In this document: in pieces, positions 2,797-64,000 of the stretch | How the letters are laid out: each line of letters opens with the position of its first letter | Position numbering within the stretch: position 1 is the first letter of the stretch | The notes under the pieces: generated by a model | The model's input: only the letters and a program-made list of their open reading frames with translations | Told to the model about the DNA's origin: nothing | Database searches by the model: none | IMG/VR virus record: IMGVR_UViG_3300045125_000089 | Coordinates: 5,499 to 69,498 of that record | DNA length: 64,000 nucleotides | Direction: 5' to 3' (one strand) | Origin: a virus | Translations under genes and position numbers: made by a program

Positions 2797-3621
2797 TTAC
2801 GAGTTGAACAAATCGTTGAATTCGTCGGCAATAGCCTTGGTATTGGCAGGAGCCTTGACCGCAGCCTTAGTTGTAGCACTCTTGGGTGCAACAGGAGCAT
2901 CGGCAGGTTCTGCTTCAGCAGGAGCGGTGGCAGTAACGGTCTCACCATCTTCAGCCGCTTCTTGTGAAGAGTTGAGCCAAGTGTCCATGACCGCAGCAAG
3001 TTCTTCATAGGAGAGTTCAGGAAAAGTTCTGTGACGTTCTTCTGGTTCTTGACTTTTTCCTTGATGGCCGCATCGGCAGGGTCAAACGCAGGCGTCTGGT
3101 TTGGCTTTACACGAATAGTGGTCTCAGGAAAACTCTTGCCGGTTTCTTCGGCGGTCTTAAACTCGACAACAATATCACGTCCTGCTCTCAGGTCAGTAAT
3201 ATCACCATAATCAGCATCGGCAATAATGCTCAAGATTTCCTGATACACCTGCTTGCCCATACCCCAGAACTTTACTCCCTCGTGTTCTGCTCCGCGAACC
3301 AGAACAGGAACATATGTACGCAACTTGGGTTCAAGGGAACGGCCAGTCTTCCATTCTTCCTTGTCTCCGCTCTTCTTGAGTTTGTTGGCAAACTCAACAA
3401 TAGAGATCGGGGCGACCAAACGAAGAAGGAGACAAATATGTCTTGCCGTTCATGTTGTAATGAAAAAGCAGTTCAATGAACGGATTTTCAGGGTTGTGAG
3501 CATAAGGAACGATTCGGATTACGTTCTTGCCCGGTGTTGGCTTCCACACAGCGGTGGTCTTGTTTTGCGTGCTCTTGAGCGAATCAAGACGCGACTTAAT
3601 TTTATTAAGATCTAATGACAT
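2797..3621 (-). CDS. gp32: T4 gp32-like single-stranded DNA-binding protein (frameshifted)
   Basis: MSLDLNKIKSRL..WKPTPGKNVIRIVPY..HY..PIVEF..GVKFWGMGKQVYQEIL..YGDITDL..GRDI, with an acidic/Ala-rich tail ending DEFNDLFNS. Pieced from three ORFs. Confidence 0.85.
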
Positions 3622-3806
3622 AATTATTTATTCGTTAATTGTTAATGTGTTTGACCAATTTGAAATGTACTCAACTCGGTCAATGTTGAATACTATGACT
3701 CAATAAATGGTAATCGTCAATCTATAAGAAGCAGTTAGCTAACTTTTCAATATTTAATTAGTCATTCGTTAAGTTTATATAACTATAAACTATAAAAGAT
3801 TTTTGA

Positions 3807-4205
3807 CTAACTTATACTGTATATCTTCATCAGCCTTGTTGGCGTGACTTTTATTTTGCCTTCTCTAGCGGTAATAAACGAGTTTCTATATTGTTCCCAG
3901 TTTATCTGAAATGTATTTGATACTATACCATTATTCTGTTCTTTGATAAGTTCATTAAGAGCATTGATGCTGTATATAATATTAAACTCTTTTTTGCGAT
4001 GCACAGAAATGGTGTTGGTATAAAACTGACTGCCATTCTTTTCTGCGTTATATGTAAGAAATATTTCATCTTTGTTGGCGGCGTTTTGTAGCACATACAC
4101 TTTCTTTTCAAGAATATTATAGTATTCAGACAATGCGTCTATTTCGTTTTGGAAGGTATTATACTTTGCGAAAGTGCAAAGAAGTTGTGCGTTATTGCCT
4201 GCCAT
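3807..4205 (-). CDS. Conserved hypothetical phage protein
   Basis: MAGNNAQLLCTFAKY..LTYN..TISVHRKK..IYSINALNELIKEQNNGIVSNTFQINWEQYRNS. Likely start ATG at 4205, just after the stop of the upstream gene. Confidence 0.6.
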   Translation of the reverse strand: MAGNNAQLLCTFAKYNTFQNEIDALSEYYNILEKKVYVLQNAANKDEIFLTYNAEKNGSQFYTNTISVHRKKEFNIIYSINALNELIKEQNNGIVSNTFQINWEQYRNSFITAREGKIKVTPTRLMKIYSIS

Positions 4206-4206
4206 A

Positions 4207-5092
4207 CTACACCATACTCTTTTCTGCAAAGATTTTATACTCGTCTCTGTCAACACTCTTGATTGGCACAACTTCACCACTCAATCCAACAACTGCTATT
4301 GTATTGCCTTCAATGTCTCTATATTCACCGTATGGCTCTGCTTTCCATCCTTTTTTATCAGCAAACTTTTTGATATACTTGAATATTGTTCTGGTGGGGT
4401 TGTTACTACCGGCACTTCTACGGCGGGAACTTCTGCTGGTTTTGGTGCTTGCGGTTTTTGCTCGTGGTACTTCCGCTGGAATGACCGACGCTGGTTTGGA
4501 AGAATATCTCGCCTTAGCTGATGCTTTTATTTTTTCTATGTCTTTGTTTGATAAAGGTGTCTCGTCGTCGCTTTCTGGAGGAAGTTCGTCTTTTTGCAGC
4601 AACGGGTTGTTTGGCAGTCGGAACTTGTTGAGCGGGAGCTTTTGCGGACTGTGCAGTAGGAGACGGTGCCGTCTGTGGTTTTTGTGATTGAGGTTGAGGT
4701 TGTGTAGTAATGTTGCCTGTTGCGTTTGACGTTTTTGCTTTCCTTTACGTTTGTAATATAAATTCATTCCACCTTTACCGTGGGTTGGGTCTGATATCGA
4801 GTGTGTACCTTTTTTGATTGCCGCGTCACGGTATTCCTTTGATGGAAATGTAACTAACCATCCATCTTTATTAAATGCCTGTCTATCTGGGTATTTGCCT
4901 TCTTGGGTAATTATTGTTTCCAAAAGCTCTTGGATTCCTTCTTCTTTAGACCTTTTCCTTTTAAAACTTCGTATACTATGTCTATATGTTCTACATTCGT
5001 CAAATCTACAATACCACTCATCGATTCCTTCGTGCAACGACGACTCAAGTAATATGTCGTCTATGAATTTTTGATATGTTTTTCTTATTCAT
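4207..5092 (-). CDS. Hypothetical protein (frameshifted, Pro/Ala-rich linker)
   Basis: ORF 4207-5037 extended to ATG at 5092. Alternate frames give PAQAPAQQVPTAK-like low-complexity stretches. Confidence 0.55.
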
Positions 5093-5102
5093 TATATAAT
5101 CC

Positions 5103-6428
5103 TTATTGTTTCTTAAATTTTATTCCCTTTGAGTATGAATAAAAATACCATCCACTCGATTGACTCAAATCTTCTATATATTCAACCCAAGTTATTTTTG
5201 CGCTCTCTTGTTTACCAACTTTATTAATTATAATAATTCCGGTATAATCAAGTTCTGGTAAAGCTCTTTTCCTACTTGCTCTGGTGTTAAAGTTTCATCA
5301 GAAAACATTTGTAACTTTAGTATTTCTGGTACAATAATTGACTGTTCTCTATTTCCTATTGCCGTGACGTTTATTTCCACGGGCGTTTGTTGTGCCGGTG
5401 GATTTTCTATCGTTTCTTTTGACTTCCTGGTCAGGAATTTCTACAGCCACTTCTACTTCTTTATTTGGTAGTTTAAAATCAGCAACACTTGTTATGGCCT
5501 CTATCTTTCTCTTTGTCCGGCATTTCTTTGAAAAACACTCTGCATTTTATTATGGACTTAAATACATTCACACCAAATGCTTCTTTGTTTGGATTTTCAA
5601 AATACTTTAGTGCATATTCAAACTCTTTTGCATCAAGGGCACTTAGGTATATCGTTTACTTTTCTCAAAAGATTTAATAAAGCTTGTTTATTATCTTTTC
5701 TTCTTTTCACGAAATATTCCAACTCATCCATCGGCTTATGACAATTTTTAAATTATCAAACCCCTTGCCTTCTCCTTTTTTAAAACTATTATCTTCGACT
5801 TTAAATACTCCTCCGACCGATTCTTTATACCGTCAACGGTTCCGCTCGGTAAAACCAAGTCACCGGACTCTCCTCTTCCTGTCTTGCTTGCCGGATATTA
5901 AAAATACAAGAGGATATTCTCCCCGACCAATCGAACTTCTTCCTTTCAGAGGCATCAGAATCTAAAAATCCTATTATATGGTCTTCATTGTATAAGTTTG
6001 GGCGAGAACTGTATAATTGTCCAATATATTCCGCGGCAGCAGAAGGCGTCATTTTATTAAAATTTCGTATAAATTCCAATTCGTCCGAACCCCATTGCTT
6101 TTTACTACTTTTTGAAGTATCCCGCACTTTATGAAACTCAATATTTTTCTATTTTATCTTCTGGTATATTTTTTGCAGTCAACGACGCCTCTGATATATT
6201 GCCTTTAGACCACTTTGTCCTAACACTGTCAGCCGTGTTTTTTTGTTTAGACGGTGTTTTTAATTTTTCCATTACACTTTGGACAACTTCTTGTTCCAAG
6301 CCATATTTTTTAAGTGCGTTTTCAAGCAAATTTATATTATCTTGTACTTCAAATCCATTCATGAATCCATCCTTGGACTCAAGTGCCAATTCACTTAAAA
6401 TTTTTTCTATAATCTTGTTTTTTTCCAT
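5103..6428 (-). CDS. Hypothetical protein (frameshifted)
   Basis: Starts MEKNKIIEKILSELALE at 6428, 4 nt downstream of an ATATTTATA motif. Coding-like fragments continue to a TAA at 5103-5105. Confidence 0.5.
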
Positions 6429-44647: not shown

Positions 44648-47600
44648 TTATATTTCTACTATTAGTTTTGGTATATCTTTACGTTCCGCCTGTACTAGAT
44701 AATAACAATATATATTACCATCATCGTTATTGTTGCTGATATAGATATATTCTGAGCTTGTGCTTGTTACAAACAAGTTTTGATAACTACCTATTGGTGT
44801 CAACTGAACTGTAATAGTATTTTCATCAACTAGATTTTTCCAATAATCTGGTAATGCTATTAGTGAACTATTGGATATACCACGTACAAATACACCGTGT
44901 TCTGGACCTTCAAGCACACCATATTGTAGTTTCCTATTTTCCAACGTTGGATGGTCAATAAGGAATGACTTGGCGGTTGCGGTTAACAATCCATTTATGG
45001 CAACTGCGCCGGTAATAAATGTAGAACCAGTAATAAATGCAGAACCAGTGACATTAAATGAACCAGATATTATAGTATTTCCAAGTATATCAAATGGTCC
45101 ATTAGCTGTAGTTTGTTTACTCCGATGCTTGTACCAGATTGATACATCACACTGTTCTCTAATCCAGTGCCTGCTCCATTTACTTTTGGTATATAATGCG
45201 GAGATGCACCGGCAACAGATGCGCCGCTGGTTCCACTAGAACCGCTCGTTCCGCTTATTCCATTTGTACCAGTGCTTCCACTTTGTCCGCTGGAACCTTG
45301 TGTGCCACTTGTACCAGATGTTCCACTACTACCAGATGAACCAGACGTTCCACTAGTACCAGATGTTCCTCTGCTACCAGATGAACCACTTGTTCCACTT
45401 GTACCGGAAGAACCCGATGAACCACCAGACCCTCCGATTCCGCTTATACCAGAAGAGCCACTACTACCAGATGAACCGCTGGTTCCGCTTGTACCAGATG
45501 AACCAGATGTTCCGCTTGTACCTGAAGTTCCACTGCTGCCGGATGTACCACTGGTTCCGCTTGTACCAGATGAACCTGATGAACCAGTTGCTCCACTTAT
45601 TCCAGAAGAGCCACTACTACCAGACGTGCCACTGGTTCCACTTGTACCAGACGAACCAGATGTTCCGCTTGTACCTGAAGTTCCACTGCTGCCGGATGTA
45701 CCACTGGTTCCGCTTGTACCAGATGAACCTGATGAACCACCAGACCCTCCGATTCCGCTTATACCAGAAGAGCCACTACTACCAGATGTGCCACTGGTTC
45801 CACTTGTACCAGACGAACCAGATGTTCCGCTTGTACCTGAAGTTCCACTGCTACCGGATGTACCACTGGTTCCGCTTGTACCAGATGAACCTGATGAACC
45901 AGTTGCTCCACTTATTCCAGAAGAGCCACTACTACCAGACGTGCCACTGGTTCCACTTGTACCAGATGAACCGGATGCGCCACTAGTACCAGATGTTCCT
46001 CTGCTACCAGATGAACCACTTGTTCCACTTGTACCGGAAGAACCCGATGAACCACCAGACCCTCCGATTCCGCTTATACCAGAAGAGCCACTACTACCAG
46101 ACGTACCACTGGTTCCACTTGTACCAGATGAACCGGATGTTCCGCTTGTACCTGAAGTTCCACTGCTGCCGGATGTACCACTTGTTCCACTTGTACCAGA
46201 AGAACCCGATGAACCACCAGACCCTCCGATTCCGCTTATACCAGAAGAGCCACTACTACCAGATGTGCCACTGGTTCCACTTGTACCAGACGAACCAGAT
46301 GTTCCGCTTGTACCTGAAGTTCCACTGCTACCGGATGTACCACTTGTTCCACTTGTACCAGAAGAACCCGATGAACCACCAGACCCTCCGATTCCGCTTA
46401 TGCCAGAAGAACCACTACTACCAGACGTACCACTGGTTCCACTTGTACCAGAAGAACCAGATGTTCCGCTTGTACCTGAAGTTCCACTGCTGCCAGATGT
46501 ACCACTAGTTCCACTTGTACCAGAAGAACCCGATGAACCAGTTGCTCCGCTTATGCCAGAAGAACCACTACTACCAGACGTACCACTGGTTCCACTTGTA
46601 CCAGAAGAACCAGATGTTCCGCTTGTACCTGAAGTTCCACTGCTGCCGGATGTACCACTGGTTCCGCTTGTACCAGATGAACCTGATGAACCAGTTGCTC
46701 CACTTATTCCAGAAGAGCCACTACTACCAGACGTGCCACTGGTTCCACTTGTACCAGATGAACCGGATGCGCCACTAGTACCAGATGTTCCTCTGCTACC
46801 AGATGAACCACTTGTTCCACTTGTACCGGAAGAACCCGATGAACCACCAGACCCTCCGATTCCGCTTATACCAGAAGAGCCACTACTACCAGATGTGCCA
46901 CTGGTTCCACTTGTACCGGATGAACCAGATGTTCCGCTTGTACCTGAAGTTCCACTGCTGCCAGATGTACCACTTGTTCCACTTGTACCAGAAGAACCCG
47001 ATGAACCACCAGACCCTCCGATTCCGCTTATGCCAGAAGAACCACTACTACCAGACGTACCACTAGTTCCACTTGTACCAGAAGAACCCGATGAACCAGT
47101 TGCTCCGCTTATGCCAGAAGAACCACTACTACCAGACGTACCACTGGTTCCACTTGTACCAGAAGAACCAGATGTTCCGCTTGTACCTGAAGTTCCACTG
47201 CTGCCGGATGTACCACTGGTTCCGCTTGTACCAGATGAACCTGATGAACCACCAGACCCTCCGATTCCGCTTATACCAGAAGAGCCACTACTACCAGATG
47301 TGCCACTGGTTCCACTTGTACCAGACGAACCAGATGTTCCGCTTGTACCTGAAGTTCCACTGCTACCGGATGTACCACTGGTTCCGCTTGTACCAGATGA
47401 ACCTGATGAACCAGTTGCTCCACTTATTCCAGAAGAGCCACTACTACCAGACGTGCCACTGGTTCCACTTGTACCAGATGAACCGGATGCGCCACTAGTA
47501 CCAGATGTTCCTCTGCTACCAGATGAACCACTTGTTCCACTTGTACCGGAAGAACCCGATGAACCACCAGACCCTCCGATTCCGCTTATACCAGAAGAGC

Positions 47601-50600
47601 CACCACTACCAGATGTGCCACTGGTTCCACTTGTACCAGATGAACCAGATGTTCCGCTTGTACCTGAAGTTCCACTGCTGCCGGATGTACCACCGGTTCC
47701 GCTTGTACCAGAAGAACCCGATGAACCACCAGACCCTCCGATTCCGCTTATACCAGAAGAGCCACTACTACCAGACGTACCACTGGTTCCACTTGTACCA
47801 GAAGAACCAGATGTTCCGCTTGTACCTGAAGTTCCACTGCTGCCAGATGTACCACTAGTTCCACTTGTACCAGAAGAACCCGATGAACCAGTTGCTCCGC
47901 TTATGCCAGAAGAACCACTACTACCAGACGTACCACTGGTTCCACTTGTACCAGAAGAACCAGATGTTCCGCTTGTACCTGAAGTTCCACTGCTGCCGGA
48001 TGTACCACTGGTTCCGCTTGTACCAGATGAACCTGATGACACCAGTTGCTCCACTTATTCCAGAAGAGCCACTACTACCAGACGTGCCACTGGTTCCACT
48101 TGTACCAGATGAACCGGATGCGCCACTAGTACCAGATGTTCCTCTGCTACCAGATGAACCACTTGTTCCACTTGTACCGGAAGAACCCGATGAACCACCA
48201 GACCCTCCGATTCCGCTTATACCAGAAGAGCCACTACTACCAGATGTGCCACTGGTTCCACTTGTACCGGATGAACCAGATGTTCCGCTTGTACCTGAAG
48301 TTCCACTGCTGCCAGATGTACCACTTGTTCCACTTGTACCAGAAGAACCCGATGAACCACCAGACCCTCCGATTCCGCTTATGCCAGAAGAACCACTACT
48401 ACCAGACGTACCACTAGTTCCACTTGTACCAGAAGAACCCGATGAACCAGTTGCTCCGCTTATGCCAGAAGAACCACTACTACCAGACGTACCACTGGTT
48501 CCACTTGTACCAGAAGAACCAGATGTTCCGCTTGTACCTGAAGTTCCACTGCTGCCGGATGTACCACTGGTTCCGCTTGTACCAGATGAACCTGATGAAC
48601 CACCAGACCCTCCGATTCCGCTTATACCAGAAGAGCCACTACTACCAGATGTGCCACTGGTTCCACTTGTACCAGACGAACCAGATGTTCCGCTTGTACC
48701 TGAAGTTCCACTGCTACCGGATGTACCACTGGTTCCGCTTGTACCAGATGAACCTGATGAACCAGTTGCTCCACTTATTCCAGAAGAGCCACTACTACCA
48801 GACGTGCCACTGGTTCCACTTGTACCAGATGAACCGGATGCGCCACTAGTACCAGATGTTCCTCTGCTACCAGATGAACCACTTGTTCCACTTGTACCGG
48901 AAGAACCCGATGAACCACCAGACCCTCCGATTCCGCTTATACCAGAAGAGCCACCACTACCAGATGTGCCACTGGTTCCACTTGTACCAGATGAACCAGA
49001 TGTTCCGCTTGTACCTGAAGTTCCACTGCTGCCGGATGTACCACCGGTTCCGCTTGTACCAGAAGAACCCGATGAACCACCAGACCCTCCGATTCCGCTT
49101 ATACCAGAAGAGCCACTACTACCAGACGTACCACTGGTTCCACTTGTACCAGATGAACCAGATGTTCCGCTTGTACCTGAAGTTCCACTGCTGCCGGATG
49201 TACCACTTGTTCCACTTGTACCAGATGAACCTGATGAACCACCAGACCCTCCGATTCCGCTTATACCAGAAGAGCCACTACTACCAGATGTGCCACTGGT
49301 TCCACTTGTACCAGATGAACCAGATGTTCCGCTTGTACCTGAAGTTCCACTGCTGCCGGATGTACCACCGGTTCCGCTTGTACCAGATGAACCTGATGAA
49401 CCACCAGACCCTCCGATTCCGCTTATACCAGAAGAGCCACTACTACCAGATGTGCCACTGGTTCCACTTGTACCAGACGAACCAGATGTTCCGCTTGTAC
49501 CTGAAGTTCCACTGCTACCGGATGTACCACTGGTTCCACTTGTACCAGATGAACCGGATGCGCCACTAGTACCAGATGTTCCTCTGCTACCAGATGAACC
49601 ACTTGTTCCACTTGTACCGGAAGAACCCGATGAACCACCAGACCCTCCGATTCCGCTTATACCAGAAGAGCCACTACTACCAGACGTACCACTGGTTCCA
49701 CTTGTACCAGATGAACCAGATGTTCCGCTTGTACCTGAAATTCCACTGCTGCCGGATGTACCACTGGTTCCGCTTGTACCAGATGAACCTGATGAACCAG
49801 TTGCTCCACTTATTCCAGAAGAGCCACTACTACCAGACGTGCCACTGGTTCCACTTGTACCAGATGAACCAGATGAACCACCAGACCCTCCGATTCCGCT
49901 TATTCCTGACATTCCAGATGAACCAGAGGAACCACTTGTTCCACTAGAACCCCCAGACCCTCCTATTCCACTGATTCCACTTACTCCGGACGAACCAGAA
50001 GAGCCACTACTTCCGGATGCTCCACTTGTACCAGATGTTCCACTGCTACCAGATGTACCGCTGGTACCGCTGGTTCCGCTGGAACCTGATGAACCGCCTA
50101 TACCACTTACTCCAGAAGAACCAGAAGAACCACTGCTGCCACTTGTGCCAGATGAACCGGATGCACCGCTAGTACCAGATGTTCCACTGCTACCAGATGT
50201 ACCGCTGGTTCCGCTGGAACCTGATGAACCGCCTATACCACTTACTCCAGAAGAACCAGAAGAACCACTGCTGCCACTTGTGCCAGATGAACCGGATGCA
50301 CCGCTAGTACCAGATGTTCCACTGCTACCAGATGTACCGCTGGTTCCGCTGGAACCTGATGAACCGCCTATACCACTTACTCCAGAAGAACCAGAAGAAC
50401 CACTGCTGCCACTTGTGCCAGATGAACCGGATGCACCGCTAGTACCAGATGTTCCACTGCTGCCAGATGTACCGCTGGTTCCGCTGGAACCGTTGAACCT
50501 GATGAACCGCCTATACCACTTACTCCAGAAGAACCAGAAGAACCACTGCTGCCACTTGTGCCAGATGAACCGGATGCACCGCTAGTACCAGATGTTCCAC

Positions 50601-52436
50601 TGCTACCAGATGTACCGCTGGTTCCACTGGAACCGTTGGAACCTGATGAACCGCCTATACCACTTACTCCAGAAGAACCAGAAGAACCACTGCTGCCACT
50701 TGTGCCAGATGAACCGGATGCACCGCTAGTACCAGATGTTCCACTGCTGCCAGATGTACCGCTGGTTCCACTGGAACCGTTGGAACCTGATGAACCGCCT
50801 ATACCACTTACTCCAGAAGAACCAGAAGAACCACTGCTGCCACTTGTGCCAGATGAACCGGATGCACCGCTAGTACCAGATGTTCCACTGCTACCAGATG
50901 TACCGCTGGTTCCACTGGAACCGTTGGAACCTGATGAACCGCCTATACCACTTACTCCAGAAGAACCAGAAGAACCACTGCTGCCACTTGTGCCAGATGA
51001 ACCGGATGCACCGCTAGTACCAGATGTTCCACTGCTACCAGATGTACCGCTGGTTCCACTGGAACCGTTGGAACCTGATGAACCGCCTATACCACTTACT
51101 CCAGAAGAACCAGAAGAACCACTGCTGCCACTTGTGCCAGATGAACCGGATGCACCGCTAGTACCAGATGTTCCACTGCTACCAGATGTACCGCTGGTTC
51201 CACTGGAACCGTTGGAACCTGATGAACCGCCTATACCACTTACTCCAGAAGAACCAGAAGAACCACTGCTGCCACTTGTGCCAGATGAACCGGATGCACC
51301 GCTAGTACCAGATGTTCCACTGCTGCCAGATGTACCGCTGGTTCCACTGGAACCGTTGGAACCTGATGAACCGCCTATACCACTTACTCCAGAAGAACCA
51401 GAAGAACCACTGCTGCCACTTGTGCCAGATGAACCGCTTTCTCCAGACGTGCCGCTGCTGCCGGACGTGCCACTGGTTCCGCTTGAACCGTTGGAACCTG
51501 ATGAACCGCCTATACCACTTACTCCAGAAGAACCAGAAGAACCACTGCTGCCACTTGTGCCAGATGAACCGCTTTCTCCAGACGTGCCGCTGCTGCCGGA
51601 CGTGCCACTGGTTCCGCTTGAACCGTTGGTTCCACTAGAACCTGCTATTCCGCTTTCGCCAGAAGAACCAGAAGAACCACTGCTGCCACTTGTGCCAGAT
51701 GAACCGCTTTCTCCAGACGTGCCGCTGCTGCCGGACGTGCCACTGGTTCCGCTTGAACCGTTGGAACCTGATGAACCGCCTATACCACTTACTCCAGAAG
51801 AACCAGAAGAACCACTGCTGCCACTTGTGCCAGATGAACCGCTTTCTCCAGACGTGCCGCTGCTGCCGGACGTGCCACTGGTTCCGCTTGAACCGTTGGT
51901 TCCACTAGAACCTGCTATTCCGCTTTCGCCAGAAGAACCAGAAGAACCACTGCTGCCACTGTGCCAGATGAACCGCTTTCTCCAGACGTGCCGCTGCTGC
52001 CGGACGTGCCACTGGTTCCGCTTGAACCGTTGGTTCCACTAGAACCTGCTATTCCGCTTTCGCCAGAAGAACCAGAAGAACCACTGCTGCCACTTGTGCC
52101 AGATGAACCGCTTTCTCCAGACGTGCCGCTGCTGCCGGACGTGCCACTGGTTCCGCTTGAACCAGACGAACCACTCGAACCAGATGCACCAGACGAACCA
52201 CTCGCACCTTCCGCAAATAAAGCATACGAAGCAGTCAATGCCTGCAAAGAATATGAAGCTGTATATGCCCAGCTTGCGGTTGCGGCAAATGCTCCGCTTG
52301 GCAAACTTGAAGTTATTGCACCATATAAATCAGTTGTTGTCCACCAGCCAGAGCTGCTGTTGTATATAGGCACATAGTTATTTAACTTATCAGTTAATTT
52401 TACTTCTATGGATTCTCTGCCTATTAGTCTGGCCAT
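44648..52436 (-). CDS. Giant Ser-Gly-X repeat (collagen-like) fibre protein, about 2,600 aa
   Basis: N-terminus MARLIGRESIEVK..TASWAYTASYSLQALTASYA, then about 7 kb of SG[T/S/I/A] triplets, then C-terminal TATAKSFLIDHPT..LQYGVLEGPEHGVFVRG..LPDYW..VQLTPIG..AERKD, a typical fibre C-terminal domain. Only about 4 indels (near 45115, 48039, 50495 and 51960). Confidence 0.85.
45230..52230 (-). repeat. Hierarchical intragenic tandem repeat (9-nt base period; 135-nt, 144-nt and 1,351-nt higher-order units)
   Basis: gttccactgg recurs at 50621, 50765, 50909, 51053, 51197 and 51341 (144 nt). 135-nt units start at 50073, 50208, 50343 and 50478. Off-frame ORFs 46785/48136 and 47073/48424 have identical translations offset by 1,351 nt. 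Confidence 0.9.
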
Positions 52437-54771: not shown

Positions 54772-56468
54772 TTATGATATTGCTAATGTTGTTCCGCTTG
54801 AAAAAGCTTTATCTGAATTTGATTTATAAACACGAACAGACACAGATGCTCCGTATGAATTGTTTATGGTATAATCTCCAAGTTTTGTGAATGCAGTCAA
54901 TACAGGCAATGCTCCATTTTGTATGATTGTACTTAAATCACCATATGACGCAGGATATAGTATGTATGTATAATTTCCAAGTACGTCGTTTGCCGCACTA
55001 CAAGTTGCAGTCCATACTCTATTATCATCAAGCAATGAATCAACAACATCAGAATTTATTACAGATTGTGCTGTGGCGTTTGATGTTATATCTGTAGAAC
55101 TTGCTGCCAAATAATTTCTGAACCTAAATGAGACAGAAGTAGATGTTCCGGTAATAAACGTTCCTATATCTGAACGTTTTCCATTTACTGCAAACGTTAC
55201 TGTTCCACCAGAAGTTGCTCTGTTGATAGTATATGTGCTGCCAACAGAAAGAGTATTTGTTCCGGCAGGTAAACCGGCATCTCCAAAATAATAATTCAAT
55301 GTACCAACATCAGCTCCAGTTGAAGACCAGCTTGAACTTATTGGTCCAATTCCACCTAGGACTATCAACACCTACGCTAAATGATGCGGTATTTACTTGG
55401 AATGAATTATTAACATCTCTTGTTGCCGCTAGAAATTGTGGAACCAAACAAGCGCATGCTCAATGAAGACAATGTAGGCGGAGTGTATGCAATAAGCATT
55501 GTTCGTAAAATATCTTCAATTGTAGAACCAGAATCTATTGTTATTCCAGAAATAATTCCACCAACATTTTGATTTGGTGTAATTGATTGTTGTAATATTG
55601 TGGCAGAAGATGTGGATATAGACCCAGTTATATGGTCTAAGTACAGTAAGAGACCCAGTTATTACAGCACTGCCACTTACTGATATAGTAAGACCATTAT
55701 CGTATACAATACTTTGTACTAAAGATGTACCACCAGCCGATGCTTTTACTAAATAATTTTCACTTGCACCAATTGTCGGACTAGTGCCACTTGTACCACT
55801 TACACCGCTAGTTCCGCTGCTTCCGCTAGTTCCGCTACTTCCGCTGGTTCCACTCGTACCACTAGTGCCACTGGTACCCGAACTACCTCTTGCTCCACTG
55901 CTTCCGCTTGAACCACTATTTCCACTTGTTCCGCTACTGCCACTGGTTCCTCCAGTCCCACTCGTTCCAGAAGTACCACTAGTACCAGAACTTCCTTGCG
56001 TTCCACTGGTTCCACTACTTCCTGCCTGCCCACTTTGACCCGCTGGTTCCACTTGTTCCACTCGTACCACTAGTTCCAGAACTTCCTCGTGTTCCACTCG
56101 TACCACTAGTCCCAGATTGTCCGCTTGTACCACTCTGTCCACTTGTTCCACTGGTGCCACTCAGTACCGGAACTTCCACGAGTGCCACTGGTTCCACTTG
56201 TTCCCACTAGTTCCGGAACTACCATTGCTACCGGATGAACCATTGAACCCACTGCCTCCACCGCCAGAACCGTTTAATGCATACGACGCGGTTAATGCAT
56301 ATGATGCACTTATAACCGAAACACTGGGTGGCAAGATAGTAGACCCCGTAACTGTACCGTCGGAGCAGTTTGTAATATAAGATTGCTACCACTTACATAT
56401 ACTTCTTCAAAGTCAGACCCCGCAGCGTTGCGTTGCGTAAAATAAATAGCTTTTGGGTCAAGACTCAT
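54772..56468 (-). CDS. Tail fibre protein with a short SGX repeat (frameshifted)
   Basis: ATG at 56468 gives MSLDPKAIYFTQRNAAGSDFEEVYVSGS..ASYALTASYA, then an SGT repeat at about 55790-56250, then the C-terminal domain ending at 54772. Confidence 0.65.
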
Positions 56469-57211: not shown

Positions 57212-59210
57212 TCAATATCCAACACTGCCCGTTAAATTATCGGTTCCCAAATTGGATAATGAAATTGTTAATGCATCGCTGGCAACATTTCCATATACTT
57301 TGTTATATATAGAGCTTGATTCCAACTAACACTTGAGTGCTACCTCCGCGGAATATATTTCCAGTGATGATATTAGCGGAGCCACTATATCCTCCAATAT
57401 AAATAGAAGGAGCACTACCGGCATTAAATATTGTATTTCCAATAAATGTACCTTCGTGTGCATTTGCGCCACGAATAACAGAGCCAGTATTATCGCTAAT
57501 CAAAAAGTTGTTACTGATATAATGACCTTGAACGTTTTCTAACCACAGCGCACTACCAGAATTTCGTGAATCAATGTGACTATTATTAAAGAGTCAGTAA
57601 TACGATTCTTCCTGCAATTGGACGATTTGCCCAATCGTATGAATTGAATGGCGCAGCAAGAATGATTTATTTCCTTTGGCATATACACCATATACAACCG
57701 GAACCATATATATTTGATTTAACAACAATCCTTCAGTGTTTTGTCCGGTGGAGGTATAGTCAACAGAGTTTATAGATATACCTGTTTTCCAGAAATTAAA
57801 CTGCGATTGATTGATGGTTCCGTTTATACACAATCTTCTTAACTCTAGACCTGTTCCTTGATAAAATGAACCAAGCGGTCTACCAACAATCATACAATTT
57901 GTAATTCTGAAATTCCACGCTGATTCTAATATAATTCCGTTTGACCAATAATTTGAATTGTCGGAAAGAATATGAACATCATTTAAATCCACAGAAACAT
58001 TTTCGTGAGCAGATTGACTTGATGTACCATATGTTATGTATATAGAAGAAGATGATGCGCCGGATGTAGTAAGGCCCAATCCTCGTATAGATACTTGATA
58101 AATCTGGTCATCAAGTCCTCCATTGTCCATATTAAATTCTATACCATTTACGTTGGCGGTTTGTTTTATAATTGAAACGTTGGAACCATTTCCTACCAAT
58201 GCAATATCGCATTGTGGATTTGATACAAGAGTCAAAGAGCCGGTAATTACATACGTTCCGTCAGGAAAATATACTGTACCTCTTCCAGATGCTTGTGAGG
58301 CTGAGATTGCAAGCAAAATTGCATTTGTATCATTTGTTGAACCATTTCCAATTGCACCATAATCTTTTACGTTATATGCAAAATTTGTATTTGCGCGCGC
58401 CGCATAAGAACTTGTGGTTGAACTCAAAGCATATGAACTTGTAGTTGAATTTAGTGCATAAGATGCAGTAACGGCGTTGGTAGCACTACCACTCAAAGAG
58501 CCCGTAGCTAAAAATCCATTAGTAGATAATCTTGCTATTAAATTTCCACCAGCAGAAAATCCAAGGTCATTATTTCCTATTTTATATATTCCTGTATCGC
58601 CGTCCCCCAACCAACCAAATGCAACATCTGATGCAGTTCCATTATTTCCATATAACAAAACGTTTTTAGACTGTAATAATTTGAACCAACCTGTTGAAGT
58701 AGATGCTTCAACGGTAGAACCACAATCGAGACGCTGCCAGTTATGCTATGTAAATTTCCAACAACAGAACCAAGTTTTGTATTTTCTGTTTCTACAAACG
58801 ATGCCGTTACTTTTCCAAGCATTAATTCTTCCAAAAGTGACATTATTTGAAATACTAAATGCTTCTCCTCCTCCGTCCGACAGTTGAGCACTGCTAGAAA
58901 TTGTTCCACCTCCACCGCCACCAGCTCAGACCACTACCAAGCATCTGTACCCACATACTACCCGATTTTATCAATAATTTCCATCATTTCCATATGATTC
59001 TGCGCCATCTGCTCCACGAGAATCCGTCGATGAAGTTACTGGCGGATTTATTATCCAGCGTTTTCTAGACAATTCATAGCCAGCCGCAGAACTTGAAATT
59101 TTTATATTAGCGAGACCGCTGCCATATATATCCAAACCTATAATATAACTGGCGGTTGATAGAGAAGTTATATTCTCGAATTGGGACATTTTGGTCGGTA
59201 TGTATGACAT
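57212..59210 (-). CDS. Tailspike / putative polysaccharide depolymerase (pectate lyase 3-type beta-helix), frameshifted
   Basis: AYNVKDYGAIGNGSTNDTNAILLAI..GRGTVYFPDGTYVITGSLTL, followed by right-handed beta-helix-like repeats (NIITGNIF, FIGNTIF). Confidence 0.8.
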
Positions 59211-60421: not shown

Positions 60422-63400
60422 TTACTGATTAAAATTTATTTTTACTCCAAGCAACTGAGCATCTACAGCAAGTGTGTCTGATCCATCAGTTGCATTTCTA
60501 CTGATTTCATACACTACAGCATTTGTAGTGGAATTTGAGCCAGTAATTGTTACAGCAGGAGTGTTTGAAGAAATATGCATATCATTGGCTGCAAGCAATG
60601 TGTCTGTTACTGATTGTGCTGTACCAATTACCGTCGGTCCAATACGAGCCATCGTCTCGCAAAAGATCTTTGCACCTATTCTCCAAACTACCGCACCAGA
60701 AGAACCAGTTGCTGTCCAATAAAAATTTGCAGAGATTGTTCCAGAATTCCAATTTGACGGCATAATAGTCATTGCTTGAGCATACTCAATTGCACCCGCA
60801 TCAAAATCCAATGTATCATAATTGATTTTTGTTTGTTGTAGTTTCTAATGAATTTATTCCAGAACCACTTGTAGTTCTTGGTATCCACGCAGATGCAGGT
60901 ATCCATATTGTATTTGGAGTTAAAGCATAACTTGCACGATGCCAATATACTACCTGTTCCAATAAATGAACTACCAGATACAACAAGTGCATTAGAACCA
61001 AATTTGCCCATTACAATTCTGTCATCGCTAAATACTTCAAATATAGGCAATCCAGTAATGTCACTTACATTCATCAAACTGCCACTAAGGCTGTCTGTTA
61101 TACCAAACAATGTACCTGCACTTCCGATAAATGACACACTACCATCCTGCAATACTTCTAATCTTATAGAAGATGTTGCACTACCAGAGAAATACAAGTG
61201 TGGAATTTGCGGTAGAACAGAGACTTGAGCATCATATAGATGATGATGTTACCGTTCAAAAGTAACATTACTTGCTGTTGTAAATGTAAATCCCTGCCCG
61301 TTTGTAAATTGAGCACTGCTGGATATAGGGAGCCTCCAAGTGCCTATAAGATGCAGTAACCGCCCAGCTAGAAGTTCCTCTTAGTAGTGCGGACGAAGTC
61401 ATCAAAGATAGATGCCAGTTATTGCCATATCTCCGCTAACATCAAATACGAATGAAGTATTTAATTACTTTTCCTAATACCAACACTACCGCCAGTAATA
61501 ACAAACGCATTAGTATTATATAATACCTGCTACTATTTTATCATCACTGAAAACTTCAAATATTGGAAGGACCAAATATCATTAACACTCAATAAACTTC
61601 AGACGCAATGTCTGATATATCAAACAATGCTCCGTTGCTTCCCATGAACGATAATCCACCATTCTGTAATACTTCTAGAGATATACTTGAAGTTAAGCTG
61701 CCAGAAATACTATAGCTGCATTGCTACTAGTATTTGGAGAACGAAGCATCATATAAGAAGAAGTAACAGCGTCTGTAACACGAATTGAGCCAGAAACAGC
61801 TACAGAACCCGTCAATTGTAATGAGCCAGTAACTTAGTAGTGAGCCAGATACTTGTTGTCCTGTACTATCCATTGTTACTACCACGAACCCACTTGAGAA
61901 CAAATACAAGTTTTGCATTTGTTCCCACTCACCAACATTTTGAGCCCAGATAGCAGCGGCTTCATCGCCAATAGCACCTCCATTGTCGGCATACCATACA
62001 AGTCTTCCTAGATTATCATCCGCCTGAACGGCACCTCTACCTCCGACAGTTGTTGCTCTTGATTTAAAGAACCCGAATCGTGCACCATTTGCATTATTTG
62101 AATATCTTCCAATATATCCAAACGTCGCCGAAGTACTTAAAATTTGGAATATATCTCCCGCCGAAGTAAGAACGGTGTCTGGCGTATTTGTGCCCATTAC
62201 AAACTTTCCGTTTGAAGTAATAGAAACTGAACCTGTTACTCCTAACGACCCCGTAATAAACGTCGTTCCGTTTACATCCAACGTTGTAGTTGGAGAAGTA
62301 GTTCCGATACCAACCAAATTACTAGAATTGAATATGGAAGACTCCTGTTAATACTGAACCGCTATTGAACCTAGGTACATAATTTAATGACCCGGATGCT
62401 GCATTTGAATTTCCACTTGTTCCACTAGAACCGCTGCTACCACTTGTTCCGCTTGACCCACTTGTTCCCGCTTGAACCACTTGAACCACTTGTACCAGAT
62501 GTTCCGCTCGAGCCACTTCCACCACCACCTCCAGCAGCATTTAATGCATACGAAGTCAGTTAATGCCATTATGGCATAACTTGCTGTGCCTAATAAAGAA
62601 CCCGTGATACCAGACGATACATTTAATGTGAGCCAGTTACAGCTACACTTCCACTAACGTCTAATATAAATGCAAGATTTGGATTTGCTTTACCTATACC
62701 AATGTCACTACCAGTCACAACAAGAACGTTTTGATTGTATCCACCCATTACCACACGCTCGTCGCTAAATACTTCAAATATTGGCATACCAGACACATCG
62801 TTGACACTCATCAAACTTCCGCTCAATGAATCTGATATACCAAACAATGTTCCTGATGAACCAATAAATGATATTCCACCATCCTGTAATACTTCCAACC
62901 TAATACTTGAAGTCAAGCTACCAGAAAACACGATTGCAGAATTGCTACTTGTATTTGGAGATTTTAGCATCATATAAGATGCTGTTACAGAATCTGTGAT
63001 ACTTATTGAACCAGTAACAAAAAATGAACCAGTAATATCCAACGTGGTCGATGGATTTGTTTTTCCTATGCCAACAAAACTTCCAGAATTAAAGATAGAA
63101 GATTCTGTTAATACTGAACCACTGTTAAATCTTGCAACATAATTTAAAGAACCGGAAGCGGCCAATGAGTTCCCACTGGTTCCAGCAGAACCGCTTGAAC
63201 CGGATGAACCGCTGGTTCCACTGCTGCCCGAAGTTCCACTTGTTCCGCTTGAGCCGGATGTACCATTTGCACCACTTGTGCCGCTAGACCCAGAAGTACC
63301 AGATGTTCCGGAAGAACCACTTGTTCCAGTAGTTCCACTTGGACCCGATGTACCACTCGTACCACTACTTCCAGAAGTTCCACTTGTACCGCTTGAACCA

Positions 63401-64000
63401 GAAGTACCGTTTGCTCCACTTGTACCGCTAGAACCACTACCTCCGGCAGCATTCAATGCATAAGAAGCCAGTTAATGCATACGAAGAACTTAAAGCTGTA
63501 TTAGCATAACTTGCAGTGCCTAATATACTACCCGTACCAATAAATGTGCTACCAGAAACAGAAATGGCATATGCATTATACTCTCCAATGAACACTTGGT
63601 CATCACTAAATACTTCAAATATTGGAAATCCTGATATGTCATTTACCGCAAACAAACTTCCGCTTAAAGAATCTGCTACACCAAGCAATACACCATTTGA
63701 ACCAATGAATGCAACTGTACCATCCTGTAATACTTCAAGACGTATAGAAGATGTTGCACTACCAGAAAATACTATTGTTGCATTGCTGCTTGTATCTAGG
63801 AGACTTCAACATTATATACGATGAAGTAATAGAATCCGTTACACGCAGTGAACCGGTAATAAACATTGAACCAGTAATGTCACAACGTCGTTGTTGGTGT
63901 AGCTTGTTCCTATACCAACAAAACTACCGAGGTTGAATACAGAAGATTCTGTAAGCACATGAGCCGCTATTGAACCTTGCTACATAGTTTAGCTGAACCA
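60422..64000 (-). CDS. Long modular tail fibre protein(s), 5' end beyond window (frameshifted)
   Basis: Alternating SGX linkers, (T/N)AS(Y/F)A repeats, GIG(T/K)..P..TLD(V/I).G repeats and RLEVL..EVFSD(D/E) modules. The C-terminal domain is WIPASAWIPRTTSG..LDFDAG..EYAQ..LLGVKINF. Confidence 0.7.

Follow-up and report, generated by a model that had tools for sequence, protein, structure and literature searches.

A candidate giant collagen-like fibre gene with 777 uninterrupted, proline-free Gly-X-Y triplets in an uncultured large phage

The stretch of DNA analysed here, referred to as the window, comprises 64,000 nucleotides (positions 5,499 to 69,498) of the IMG/VR virus record IMGVR_UViG_3300045125_000089, a 96.7-kb linear contig of an uncultured large phage with a completeness of 47% according to CheckV. 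The subject of this study is a single minus-strand gene at 52436..44648 of the window, whose product has 2,596 residues when it is read through with X at the frame breaks described below. The gene starts with an ATG at 52436, 19 nt past the stop of an upstream 118-aa gene, and first encodes an N-terminal part of 76 residues (52209..52436). This part is followed by an array of 777 uninterrupted Gly-X-Y triplets, corresponding to 2,331 residues (45217..52208, identified by translation and by the Pfam family Collagen), and by a C-terminal part of about 188 residues (44651..45216) with a neck, a short beta-helix-like stretch and a predicted beta-sandwich knob. The stop codon TAA lies at 44648-44650. 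The gene is covered by five stop-free pieces of the minus strand, each overlapping the next (52448-51918, 52038-50380, 50581-47924, 48054-45073 and 45235-44651). Long open reading frames (ORFs) on the plus strand of the same DNA were rejected as mirror products of the repeat, and the minus strand is considered to be the coding one because it alone has the flanking N- and C-terminal domains, for which homologues exist, in phase with the repeat.

The composition of the array is strongly restricted. Position X is occupied by Ser (331), Thr (324), Ile (68), Ala (30), Val (13) and Glu (9), position Y by Ser (683), Gly (57), Asn (12), Thr (12), Arg (7) and Gln (1), and the commonest triplets are GTS (315) and GSS (292). 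Gly accounts for 35.8% of the residues, Pro, Lys and Asp are absent, and the nine Glu and seven Arg are the only charged residues. Where a collagen-like sequence is defined by at least six contiguous Gly-X-Y triplets, this array has 777. The Pfam family Collagen (PF01391) matched the two end pieces of the gene with 56.6 and 39.1 bits (cut-off 27.2), and the whole contig yielded 67 matches to this family. All four Gly codons are used in the repeat (447 GGT, 228 GGA, 136 GGC and 21 GGG), Ser is drawn from both codon families, and it is the codons used that raise the GC content to 51-54% in the repeat versus about 37-39% around it. Although the X and Y positions and the silent sites vary, Gly is replaced in 0/777 triplets. 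Given that synonymous change is free at the Gly codons and yet not a single replacement is found, the Gly register is far beyond chance and looks selected. The initial annotation of this DNA had described a repeat of some 2,300 residues with Gly at every third position, without Pro and with hardly any charge, in a fibre-type protein that has a C-terminal domain of its own, and both statements hold, with 2,331 residues lacking Pro, Lys and Asp and with the neck, beta-helix-like stretch and knob at the C-terminal end.

The Gly phase, followed as GG dinucleotides modulo 9 nt, changes from 6 to 5, to 4 and back to 5, with a one-base step at three sites of the repeat, and the register is otherwise continuous over about 7 kb. 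At the first of these sites, J1 (51959..51960, minus strand as for all breaks), one A is missing, giving ACA-GT versus ACAAGT in the sister units; the intact form occurs 14 times in sister units, and the nearest of these agree in 80/80 bases on one flank and in 68-72 on the other. At J2 (50492..50494), an A-run is one base short, with TCAAC where the Ser-Asn reading needs TCAAAC, and the correction follows from the reading frame, as the corrected form has no verbatim sister copy in the array. J3 (48040) contains one extra G (GGT-G-TCA); the form without this G occurs six times, and the sister at gene nt 5739 matches 80/80 bases on both flanks. The three single-base indels inside the repeat had been recognized in the initial annotation, but a fourth break, J4 (45112..45114), an A-run one base short in the C-terminal domain, had not been counted. 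J4 is intact in the 86%-identical relative P0001, which reads straight through as ...SIGVNKTTANAPFDILGN...; P0001 is present on five contigs, four of which derive from four different metagenomes.

With the exception of J3, all breaks lie at a short A-run or an AA doublet. Homopolymers of at least four bases occur at 0.14 per kb in the repeat versus about 13 per kb in the flanks, thus being about 90-fold rarer, and it is their scarcity that explains why the repeat contains few breaks. Other genes of the contig are also frame-broken, and long ORFs are scarce throughout the window whichever genetic code is applied. Because J4 is intact in relatives, and because J1 and J3 are one base off sister units, the four breaks are most likely sequencing errors in an error-prone contig. 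Past each of them, the correct frame remains open over thousands of bases without loss of the register. An alternative genetic code was rejected, since recoding of TAG, TGA or TAA left the contig unhealed and the breaks are frameshifts rather than stops. Programmed frameshifting was rejected as well: the breaks share no slippery motif, and the intact J4 of the relatives and the near-identical sisters of J1 and J3, one base apart from them, also speak against it.

The array has a complex internal structure. Its proximal third is composed of 135/144-nt units that are about 92-95% alike and its distal two thirds of 162/315-nt units that are about 78-80% alike and arranged in higher-order blocks, and a Gly-rich motif of the GISGIGGSGG type recurs every ~15-18 triplets along the array. 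A 1,350-nt (450-residue) tandem duplication at 46412..49153 of the minus strand is evident from two exact matches, one of 1,113 nt at offset 1,351 and one of 278 nt at offset 1,350. Its two copies, 49153-47762 and 47802-46412, correspond to gene nt 3284-4675 and 4635-6025, and the J3 base is their sole difference. This duplication may be either very recent or an assembly artefact; without one of its copies, the repeat still has 1,881 residues. Only 19% of the 31-mers and 47% of the 151-mers of the gene are unique. Only long reads could have spanned such an array, which fits the indel errors of the contig.

These properties raise the possibility that the locus is largely an artefact or a dead gene, with an array inflated by mis-assembly or with real frameshifts in a decaying pseudogene. 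The perfect tandem duplication in an error-prone contig, the low proportion of unique k-mers, the four frame breaks and the lack of a second contig that spans the array would all be compatible with this explanation, which we nevertheless consider unlikely, although the exact length of the array may be affected by assembly. Removal of one copy of the duplication leaves a repeat that is still very long, and short-read tandem mis-assembly usually collapses repeats or breaks the contig, as is the case in the relatives, while the contig-wide indel pattern points to long reads. The frame that stays open past each break and the intact J4 of the relatives also argue against decay. Furthermore, neither the conservation of the gene in relatives nor a robustly assembled protein of 2,814 residues on another contig would be explained.

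Relatives of the upstream tail-fibre gene (76-83% identity) were found on five IMG/VR contigs, one of which is 297 kb long and rated complete. On four of these five contigs, the tail-fibre gene is followed by the 118-aa gene, the conserved N-terminal part and a Pro-free Gly-X-Y run up to the contig end; the fifth (L010) stops 58 nt past the upstream fibre gene. The run on L007 comprises about 460 residues in frame and without interruption, and in relatives with different unit sequences, a strict in-frame register can be followed to the end of the contig, over at least 460, 290 and 225 residues. Four other contigs start within the repeat and continue in frame into the C-terminal domain. Nine of the ten related contigs (L002-L010 and L013) end inside the Gly-X-Y array, from either side. 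Because the repeat is reached in frame from both sides, the gene family is considered real and conserved, with short-read assemblies breaking on it. The missing C-terminal half of the gene was also sought at the opposite end of the 297-kb relative, where other fibre genes gave weak neck-like matches and nothing more. No match was obtained among GenBank phages by megablast of the flank or by tblastn of the N-terminal 78 residues.

On L013 (L013:3-3089), the repeat leads into the same neck, after which about 750 residues of beta-helix modules, repeats of the INKTTANAKLDV-GS type, precede the knob, which in sequence terms shows a modular insertion between stalk and tip. An independent example of a very long stalk is provided by L037, an unrelated viral contig of 33.6 kb, on which an ORF of 2,814 residues (L037:1934-10375) ends in a homologous knob. 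About 2,520 residues of this protein are in one three-residue register without Pro, the first position being Gly in 685, Ala in 107 and Lys/Arg in 34 cases, and Ala replaces Gly in two successive triplets (ALS-ATS) every ~10-16 triplets with the register kept. As the DNA of L037 is 100% unique at the level of 101-mers, its assembly is regarded as reliable even if it was made from short reads. This fibre family therefore includes stalks of about 2,500 residues whose existence does not depend on the present contig. Pro-free Gly-X-Y runs of Ser and Thr are also common in database proteins of 1,741-4,970 residues that share repeat words with the array; these proteins often end with Peptidase_S74 (PF13884), and their longest uninterrupted run is 594 residues, a value biased downward by assembly breaks.

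The C-terminal part begins with the neck (ASPHYIPKVNG...) and continues with G-x-x-I/V-x-G repeats and a knob with the invariant motifs KSFLIDHP and LEGPEH. Its last 154 residues matched phrog_17490 (E 2e-39) and phrog_28536 (E 5e-35), both families of unknown function, while a C-terminal piece of 195 residues matched no Pfam family at E <= 0.01, including Peptidase_S74 (PF13884). An exhaustive profile-free search detected the knob in 5,988 representative clusters at E <= 0.001. In 150/150 best matches, the knob forms the C-terminal end of the protein that carries it, the length of which ranges from 157 to 3,418 residues, and only 5 of these 150 proteins contain Gly-X-Y runs, for which reason we regard the knob as a mobile module. 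An alignment of 91 knob sequences has 16 invariant columns. Among cultured phages, homologues of the knob occur in Flavobacterium phage immuto, in a protein annotated as 'putative tail fiber-like protein', and in numerous T4-like cyanophages; one of the latter, Synechococcus phage RN05-S, has it in a 280-aa 'collagen triple helix repeat protein' that adjoins gp5.

By sequence, the knob had nothing below E 0.08 among the chains of the PDB. AlphaFold2, supplied with the 91-sequence alignment, modelled the C-terminal domain with a predicted local distance difference test (pLDDT) value of 88.9. A Foldseek search of the PDB with the knob model retrieved nothing with E <= 0.001. The exhaustive structural aligner VIA-align, applied to residues 73-142 and judged against a Z score near 8 as the level that the tool calls common, placed the C-terminal domain of the cyanophage Pam1 tailspike first (Z 8.8, root-mean-square deviation 1.9, 67 residues aligned), followed by the Klebsiella phage K64-1 depolymerase (Z 6.7), the Acinetobacter phage AP22 fibre gp53 (Z 6.6), Discoidin I (Z 6.5) and the R2 pyocin fibre (Z 6.0). 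The modelled fold thus resembles the tips of tailspikes, fibres and H-type lectins, with scores that are suggestive rather than proof. The best matches of the knob in BFVD were phage 'Collagen triple helix repeat' proteins of 969-1,089 residues.

A structure prediction of trimers, which had been proposed along with the initial annotation, gave a divided result. Three copies of the intact, 86%-identical relative P0151 (L004), each with 110 repeat residues and the C-terminal part, yielded a score of 0.89 versus 0.00 for the best control, a mark attained by 21/30 solved one-chain pairs and by 0/23 solved single chains. The runs agreed in at least 70% of the contacts, with partner pLDDT values of at least 66. 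Confident contacts span residues 108-299, with the invariant LEGPEH loop at the interface, but none were obtained in residues 1-107, which belong to the Gly-X-Y part. The model therefore supports, but does not prove, a trimeric tip, and leaves the repeat itself without confident contacts.

The 76 residues of the N-terminal part matched no Pfam family, and an Ala/Ser-periodic stretch at their end (...TASYALFAE) leads straight into the repeat. Judging from the analogous PfN-PCoil part of EPclA (PMC3368898), the N-terminal part is presumed to attach the protein to the virion, and a short trimer clamp is possible within it; on sequence resemblance, the Ala/Ser-periodic stretch recalls the trimerising PCoil region of that protein. 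EPclA, encoded by a prophage of E. coli O157:H7, was demonstrated by experiment to form a trimer with a triple helix and a melting temperature of 42 °C, its end domains being trimerisation modules (PMC3368898). Both proteins combine an attachment part, an Ala/Ser-periodic stretch, a Gly-X-Y domain and a C-terminal trimerising domain (the latter predicted here), and both are encoded among tail-fibre genes. However, the Gly-X-Y domain of EPclA is short, and Pro fills 48% of its X positions and Lys/Arg about 31% of its Y positions, whereas the present one has 777 triplets without Pro, Lys or Asp. End domains of the EPclA type were not detected in the giant fibre protein, which had no Pfam match to PF08400 or PF06820.

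Given these data, we favour, with slightly better than even confidence, the interpretation that the region is an intact gene for a giant homotrimeric, collagen-like receptor-binding fibre of a large tailed phage, the four breaks being sequencing errors. The N-terminal ~76 residues would anchor the protein to the virion within the tail-fibre/baseplate set, and the C-terminal ~190 residues would trimerise and thereby register and nucleate the three chains, with the knob as the distal tip, probably binding a glycan. Collagens generally zip from the C-terminal end (PMC11923368). The 777 Gly-(Ser/Thr/Ile)-Ser triplets would form a thin three-chain stalk of the collagen type. Were it triple-helical throughout, it would measure 0.54-0.67 µm: a rise of 0.286 nm per residue amounts to 667 nm for the whole repeat, in agreement with the span of about 650 nm calculated in the initial annotation, and to 538 nm once a copy of the duplication is left out. 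Stability would probably be provided by the two end clamps, the length, a network of hydroxyl groups and water and, most likely, O-glycosylation of the ~1,350 Ser/Thr residues by phage-encoded enzymes of the TibC/Aah type. The likely function would be that of a long, flexible capture line that widens the encounter radius and brings the knob to a sugar of the host surface. We infer the triple helix, the glycosylation, the attachment point and the function, and the fold and the trimer of the tip are modelled, whereas the pattern of the sequence, the homologies of its domains, the genes around it and its presence in relatives are directly observed. A three-chain stalk is favoured because Gly is conserved without exception at every third position, a demand of the triple helix and not of a disordered linker, and because the layout appears to be that of proven phage collagens such as EPclA. 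With regard to the long capture filament suggested earlier, the fibre neighbourhood, the trimer model of the tip and the fit to tip-like folds are in line with such a filament, the stalk of which may be triple-helical.

Several points weigh against this interpretation. None of the known non-animal stabilisers of triple helices is found in the repeat, and Thr stands mostly in X, not in Y. In bacterial and viral collagen-like domains, stability depends on Pro in X, on charged pairs or on Thr or Gln in Y (PMC8968730, PMC3368898), and viral ones are reported to be rich in KGD/KGE clamp triplets (PMC11923368). According to the latter source, (Gly-Pro-Thr)10 is a random coil unless its Thr residues are galactosylated (PMC11923368). 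By the count used there, the 57 Gly residues in Y are local interruptions. The length depends on a single error-prone assembly in which 1,350 nt are perfectly duplicated, and the array is not spanned by any related contig. The register could partly be a by-product of the amplification of units that are multiples of 9 nt. As described above, the trimer model lacks confident contacts in its Gly-X-Y part, and the 96.7 kb of the present contig contain no match to GT2, GT1 or TIGR04414 glycosyltransferases. A repeat piece of 301 residues, folded alone by AlphaFold2, had a pLDDT of 26 and no secondary structure, which is uninformative on any fold.

Alternatively, the fibre and its trimeric tip could be the same but the stalk no regular triple helix: its three chains of 2,331 residues would be flexible, largely disordered and probably heavily O-glycosylated in the manner of a mucin or brush, and would serve as an entropic tether or a sticky, sugar-rich coat instead of a stiff rod. 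Gly/Ser-rich sequences are typical flexible linkers, and the lack of Pro, the near absence of charge and the low pLDDT of the repeat monomer agree with such a tether, as do the many glycosyltransferases encoded by a relative, including Ser-directed types of the BAHT class. The random coil of the unsugared (Gly-Pro-Thr)10 (cited in PMC11923368) points in the same direction. However, a linker has no need of an exact Gly at every third position, where 0/777 are replaced here, the register is retained in diverged relatives, and the repeat is bracketed by parts that are predicted to trimerise, as in the proven phage collagens (PMC3368898). We therefore regard the disordered tether as a possible but less probable alternative to the collagen-type stalk.

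A further alternative, put forward in the initial annotation, is that the repeat folds back into polyglycine-II bundles or sheets and exposes a flat, hydroxyl-rich surface for the binding of ice or glycans. The motifs of the GIGGSGG type every 15-18 triplets could in principle be turns, but a spacing of 45-54 residues is several times the known length of polyglycine-II helices. Gly-X-X periodicity and small polar side chains are also found in polyglycine-II bundles (10.1101/2023.11.25.568672). The same source gives a Gly content of about two-thirds for two-layer bundles, in which buried helices are all Gly (10.1101/2023.11.25.568672), whereas the 35.8% found here is the third typical of collagen. 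Ile, Val and Thr fill the X position throughout, and the succession of anchor, repeat and trimeric knob is a fibre architecture. The known polyglycine-II proteins, such as the snow-flea antifreeze protein and the gp38 tip of phage S16, which is also a phage fibre tip, share the three-residue periodicity and the combination of Gly with small polar residues. However, they are small, with about half to all Gly per helix, short helices and tight turns, in contrast to one-third Gly over 2,331 residues. This proposal was therefore not borne out and is considered very improbable.

Returning to the collagen-type stalk, candidate enzymes for its glycosylation are encoded by the complete 297-kb relative (G001, the record behind L006). 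In this genome, TIGR04414 (hepto_Aah_TibC) was matched with 355 bits at 268,265-269,377 (cut-off 200), shortly past the point that corresponds to the end of the present contig, and a second time with 212 bits at 179,758-180,573, and five GT2 and four GT1 matches exceeded the cut-off. The glycosyltransferase regions of G001 are located at 260672-269377, 118674-133530 and 179758-180573, with one cluster at a distance of about 15 kb from its fibre module. Collinearity between the present contig and G001 extends from this module to G001 position 269,624, and the contig ends 1.5 kb later. Since it ends at the edge of the region that holds these enzymes in G001, their absence from the contig is uninformative. 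The last gene before the contig end, outside the window, encodes a GNAT acetyltransferase (L066:12110-12604, minus strand, equivalent to G000:C1:96110-96604). It is weakly PseH-like (E 1e-10, below the cut-off) and located where the collinearity with G001 stops, and may mark the edge of a sugar-modification island.

TibC/Aah enzymes are cytoplasmic and add heptose to many Ser residues of a repetitive adhesin. Although matching enzymes are encoded by the 297-kb relative, their known acceptors are beta-helical autotransporter passengers and not Gly-X-Y repeats, and the likeness here concerns genes only, and those of a relative. A sugar-coated, O-glycosylated stalk is plausible. Whether it takes the form of a continuous collagen triple helix with 1,900-2,300 residues per chain and a length of 0.54-0.67 µm, held by dense TibC/Aah-type O-glycosylation without Pro or salt bridges, is doubtful in our view, although worth serious consideration. 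If true, it would be, to our knowledge, the longest uninterrupted triple helix from a virus or prokaryote. More speculatively, the Gly-rich motifs every 15-18 triplets might serve as hinges or as docking sites for 14 downstream lectin-fold proteins.

A useful comparison outside the phages is BclA of the Bacillus exosporium, whose stalk is O-glycosylated on Thr and forms a hair-like nap. BclA and the present protein have in common a hydroxyl-rich Gly-X-Y stalk (GPT in BclA) capped by a C-terminal trimer, which in our case is modelled. However, BclA contains Pro in every triplet and Thr in Y, is far shorter and belongs to a bacterial spore rather than a virion, and its C-terminal domain is of the C1q/TNF type, whereas the model of the present one is a small beta-sandwich of the phage-tip type. 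The C-terminal trimer of BclA is very stable, up to 95 °C (PMC8968730). The literature on collagen-like phage fibres goes back to 1998 ('Bacteriophage collagen', Smith et al. 1998, as cited in PMC1079782), and orf028 of Prochlorococcus phage P-SSM2 was described in 2005 as a Gly-X-Y fibre candidate, with Pro, Ser or Thr in many of the X and Y positions (PMC1079782). The protein of Synechococcus phage RN05-S has a homologous C-terminal knob and a position next to the baseplate gene gp5, but the Gly-X-Y candidates of cyanomyoviruses are only ~280 to ~1,200 residues long and have a short Gly-X-Y part. Prokaryotic collagen-like polypeptides are reported to have up to 2,000 triplets, with interruptions (PMC11923368). 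What is new here is thus a matter of degree: 777 triplets without interruption of the register, without Pro or clamp residues, and joined to a widespread, uncharacterised tip domain.

The genes around the giant gene belong to the same functional context. The upstream 118-aa protein matched phrog_1276, and the 644-aa protein upstream matched phrog_17885, phrog_5342, phrog_9851 and phrog_13163 (tail fibre, baseplate wedge); an array of lectin-fold genes starts directly downstream. On these matches, the giant gene lies in a tail-fibre/baseplate module. A second collagen-like gene at 55400-56385 (minus strand), split by indels over three frames, encodes about 150 residues of Pro-free Gly-X-Y and has two features in common with the giant gene, a motif of the SASYALTASYAL type ahead of the repeat and the neck motif behind it. 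A third collagen-like ORF at 62623-63456 (minus strand) has about 90 Gly-X-Y residues with one Pro, followed by the neck and by beta-helix modules as in L013. The neck after the repeat is therefore common to all three genes, with stalks of ~90, ~150 and 2,331 residues. Further Pfam Collagen matches lie just beyond the window (G000:C1:69510-71371). Taken as predicted, the collagen-like fibre genes of the phage number at least four or five, and their stalks differ greatly in length. The window also encodes a tailspike-like protein of the pectate-lyase fold (PF12708) at 57594-58658 (minus strand), which suggests that the phage may additionally bear a polysaccharide-degrading or -binding spike. 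The ten ORF fragments at 11-16.8 kb, where the tape measure would be expected, matched no PHROG family, so that the tail of about 165 nm with which the initial annotation had compared the stalk is a putative value; the stalk would perhaps be three or more times longer than the particle.

The collagen stalks of phages studied so far are short and rich in Pro or charge. The present gene therefore poses the physical question of whether about 2,000 residues per chain of Gly-Ser/Thr-Ser, without Pro or Lys-Asp/Glu clamps, can hold a triple helix. If they do, sugar would be the obvious replacement stabiliser, added by the O-glycosyltransferases that related phages encode beside the fibre module, and virion glycosylation would then extend to a large group of aquatic jumbo phages. 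Such a stalk would also be a natural test case for the proposed salt-bridge 'folding code' of collagens and a template for a recombinant, hydroxyproline-free and highly hydrophilic collagen scaffold. Given that related contigs stop inside the array, fibre genes of this kind are missing or truncated systematically in metagenomic catalogues. For the phage itself, the stalk would be a capture line several times the length of the virion, and a half-micrometre filament would greatly enlarge the target size for a phage seeking rare hosts in lake water.

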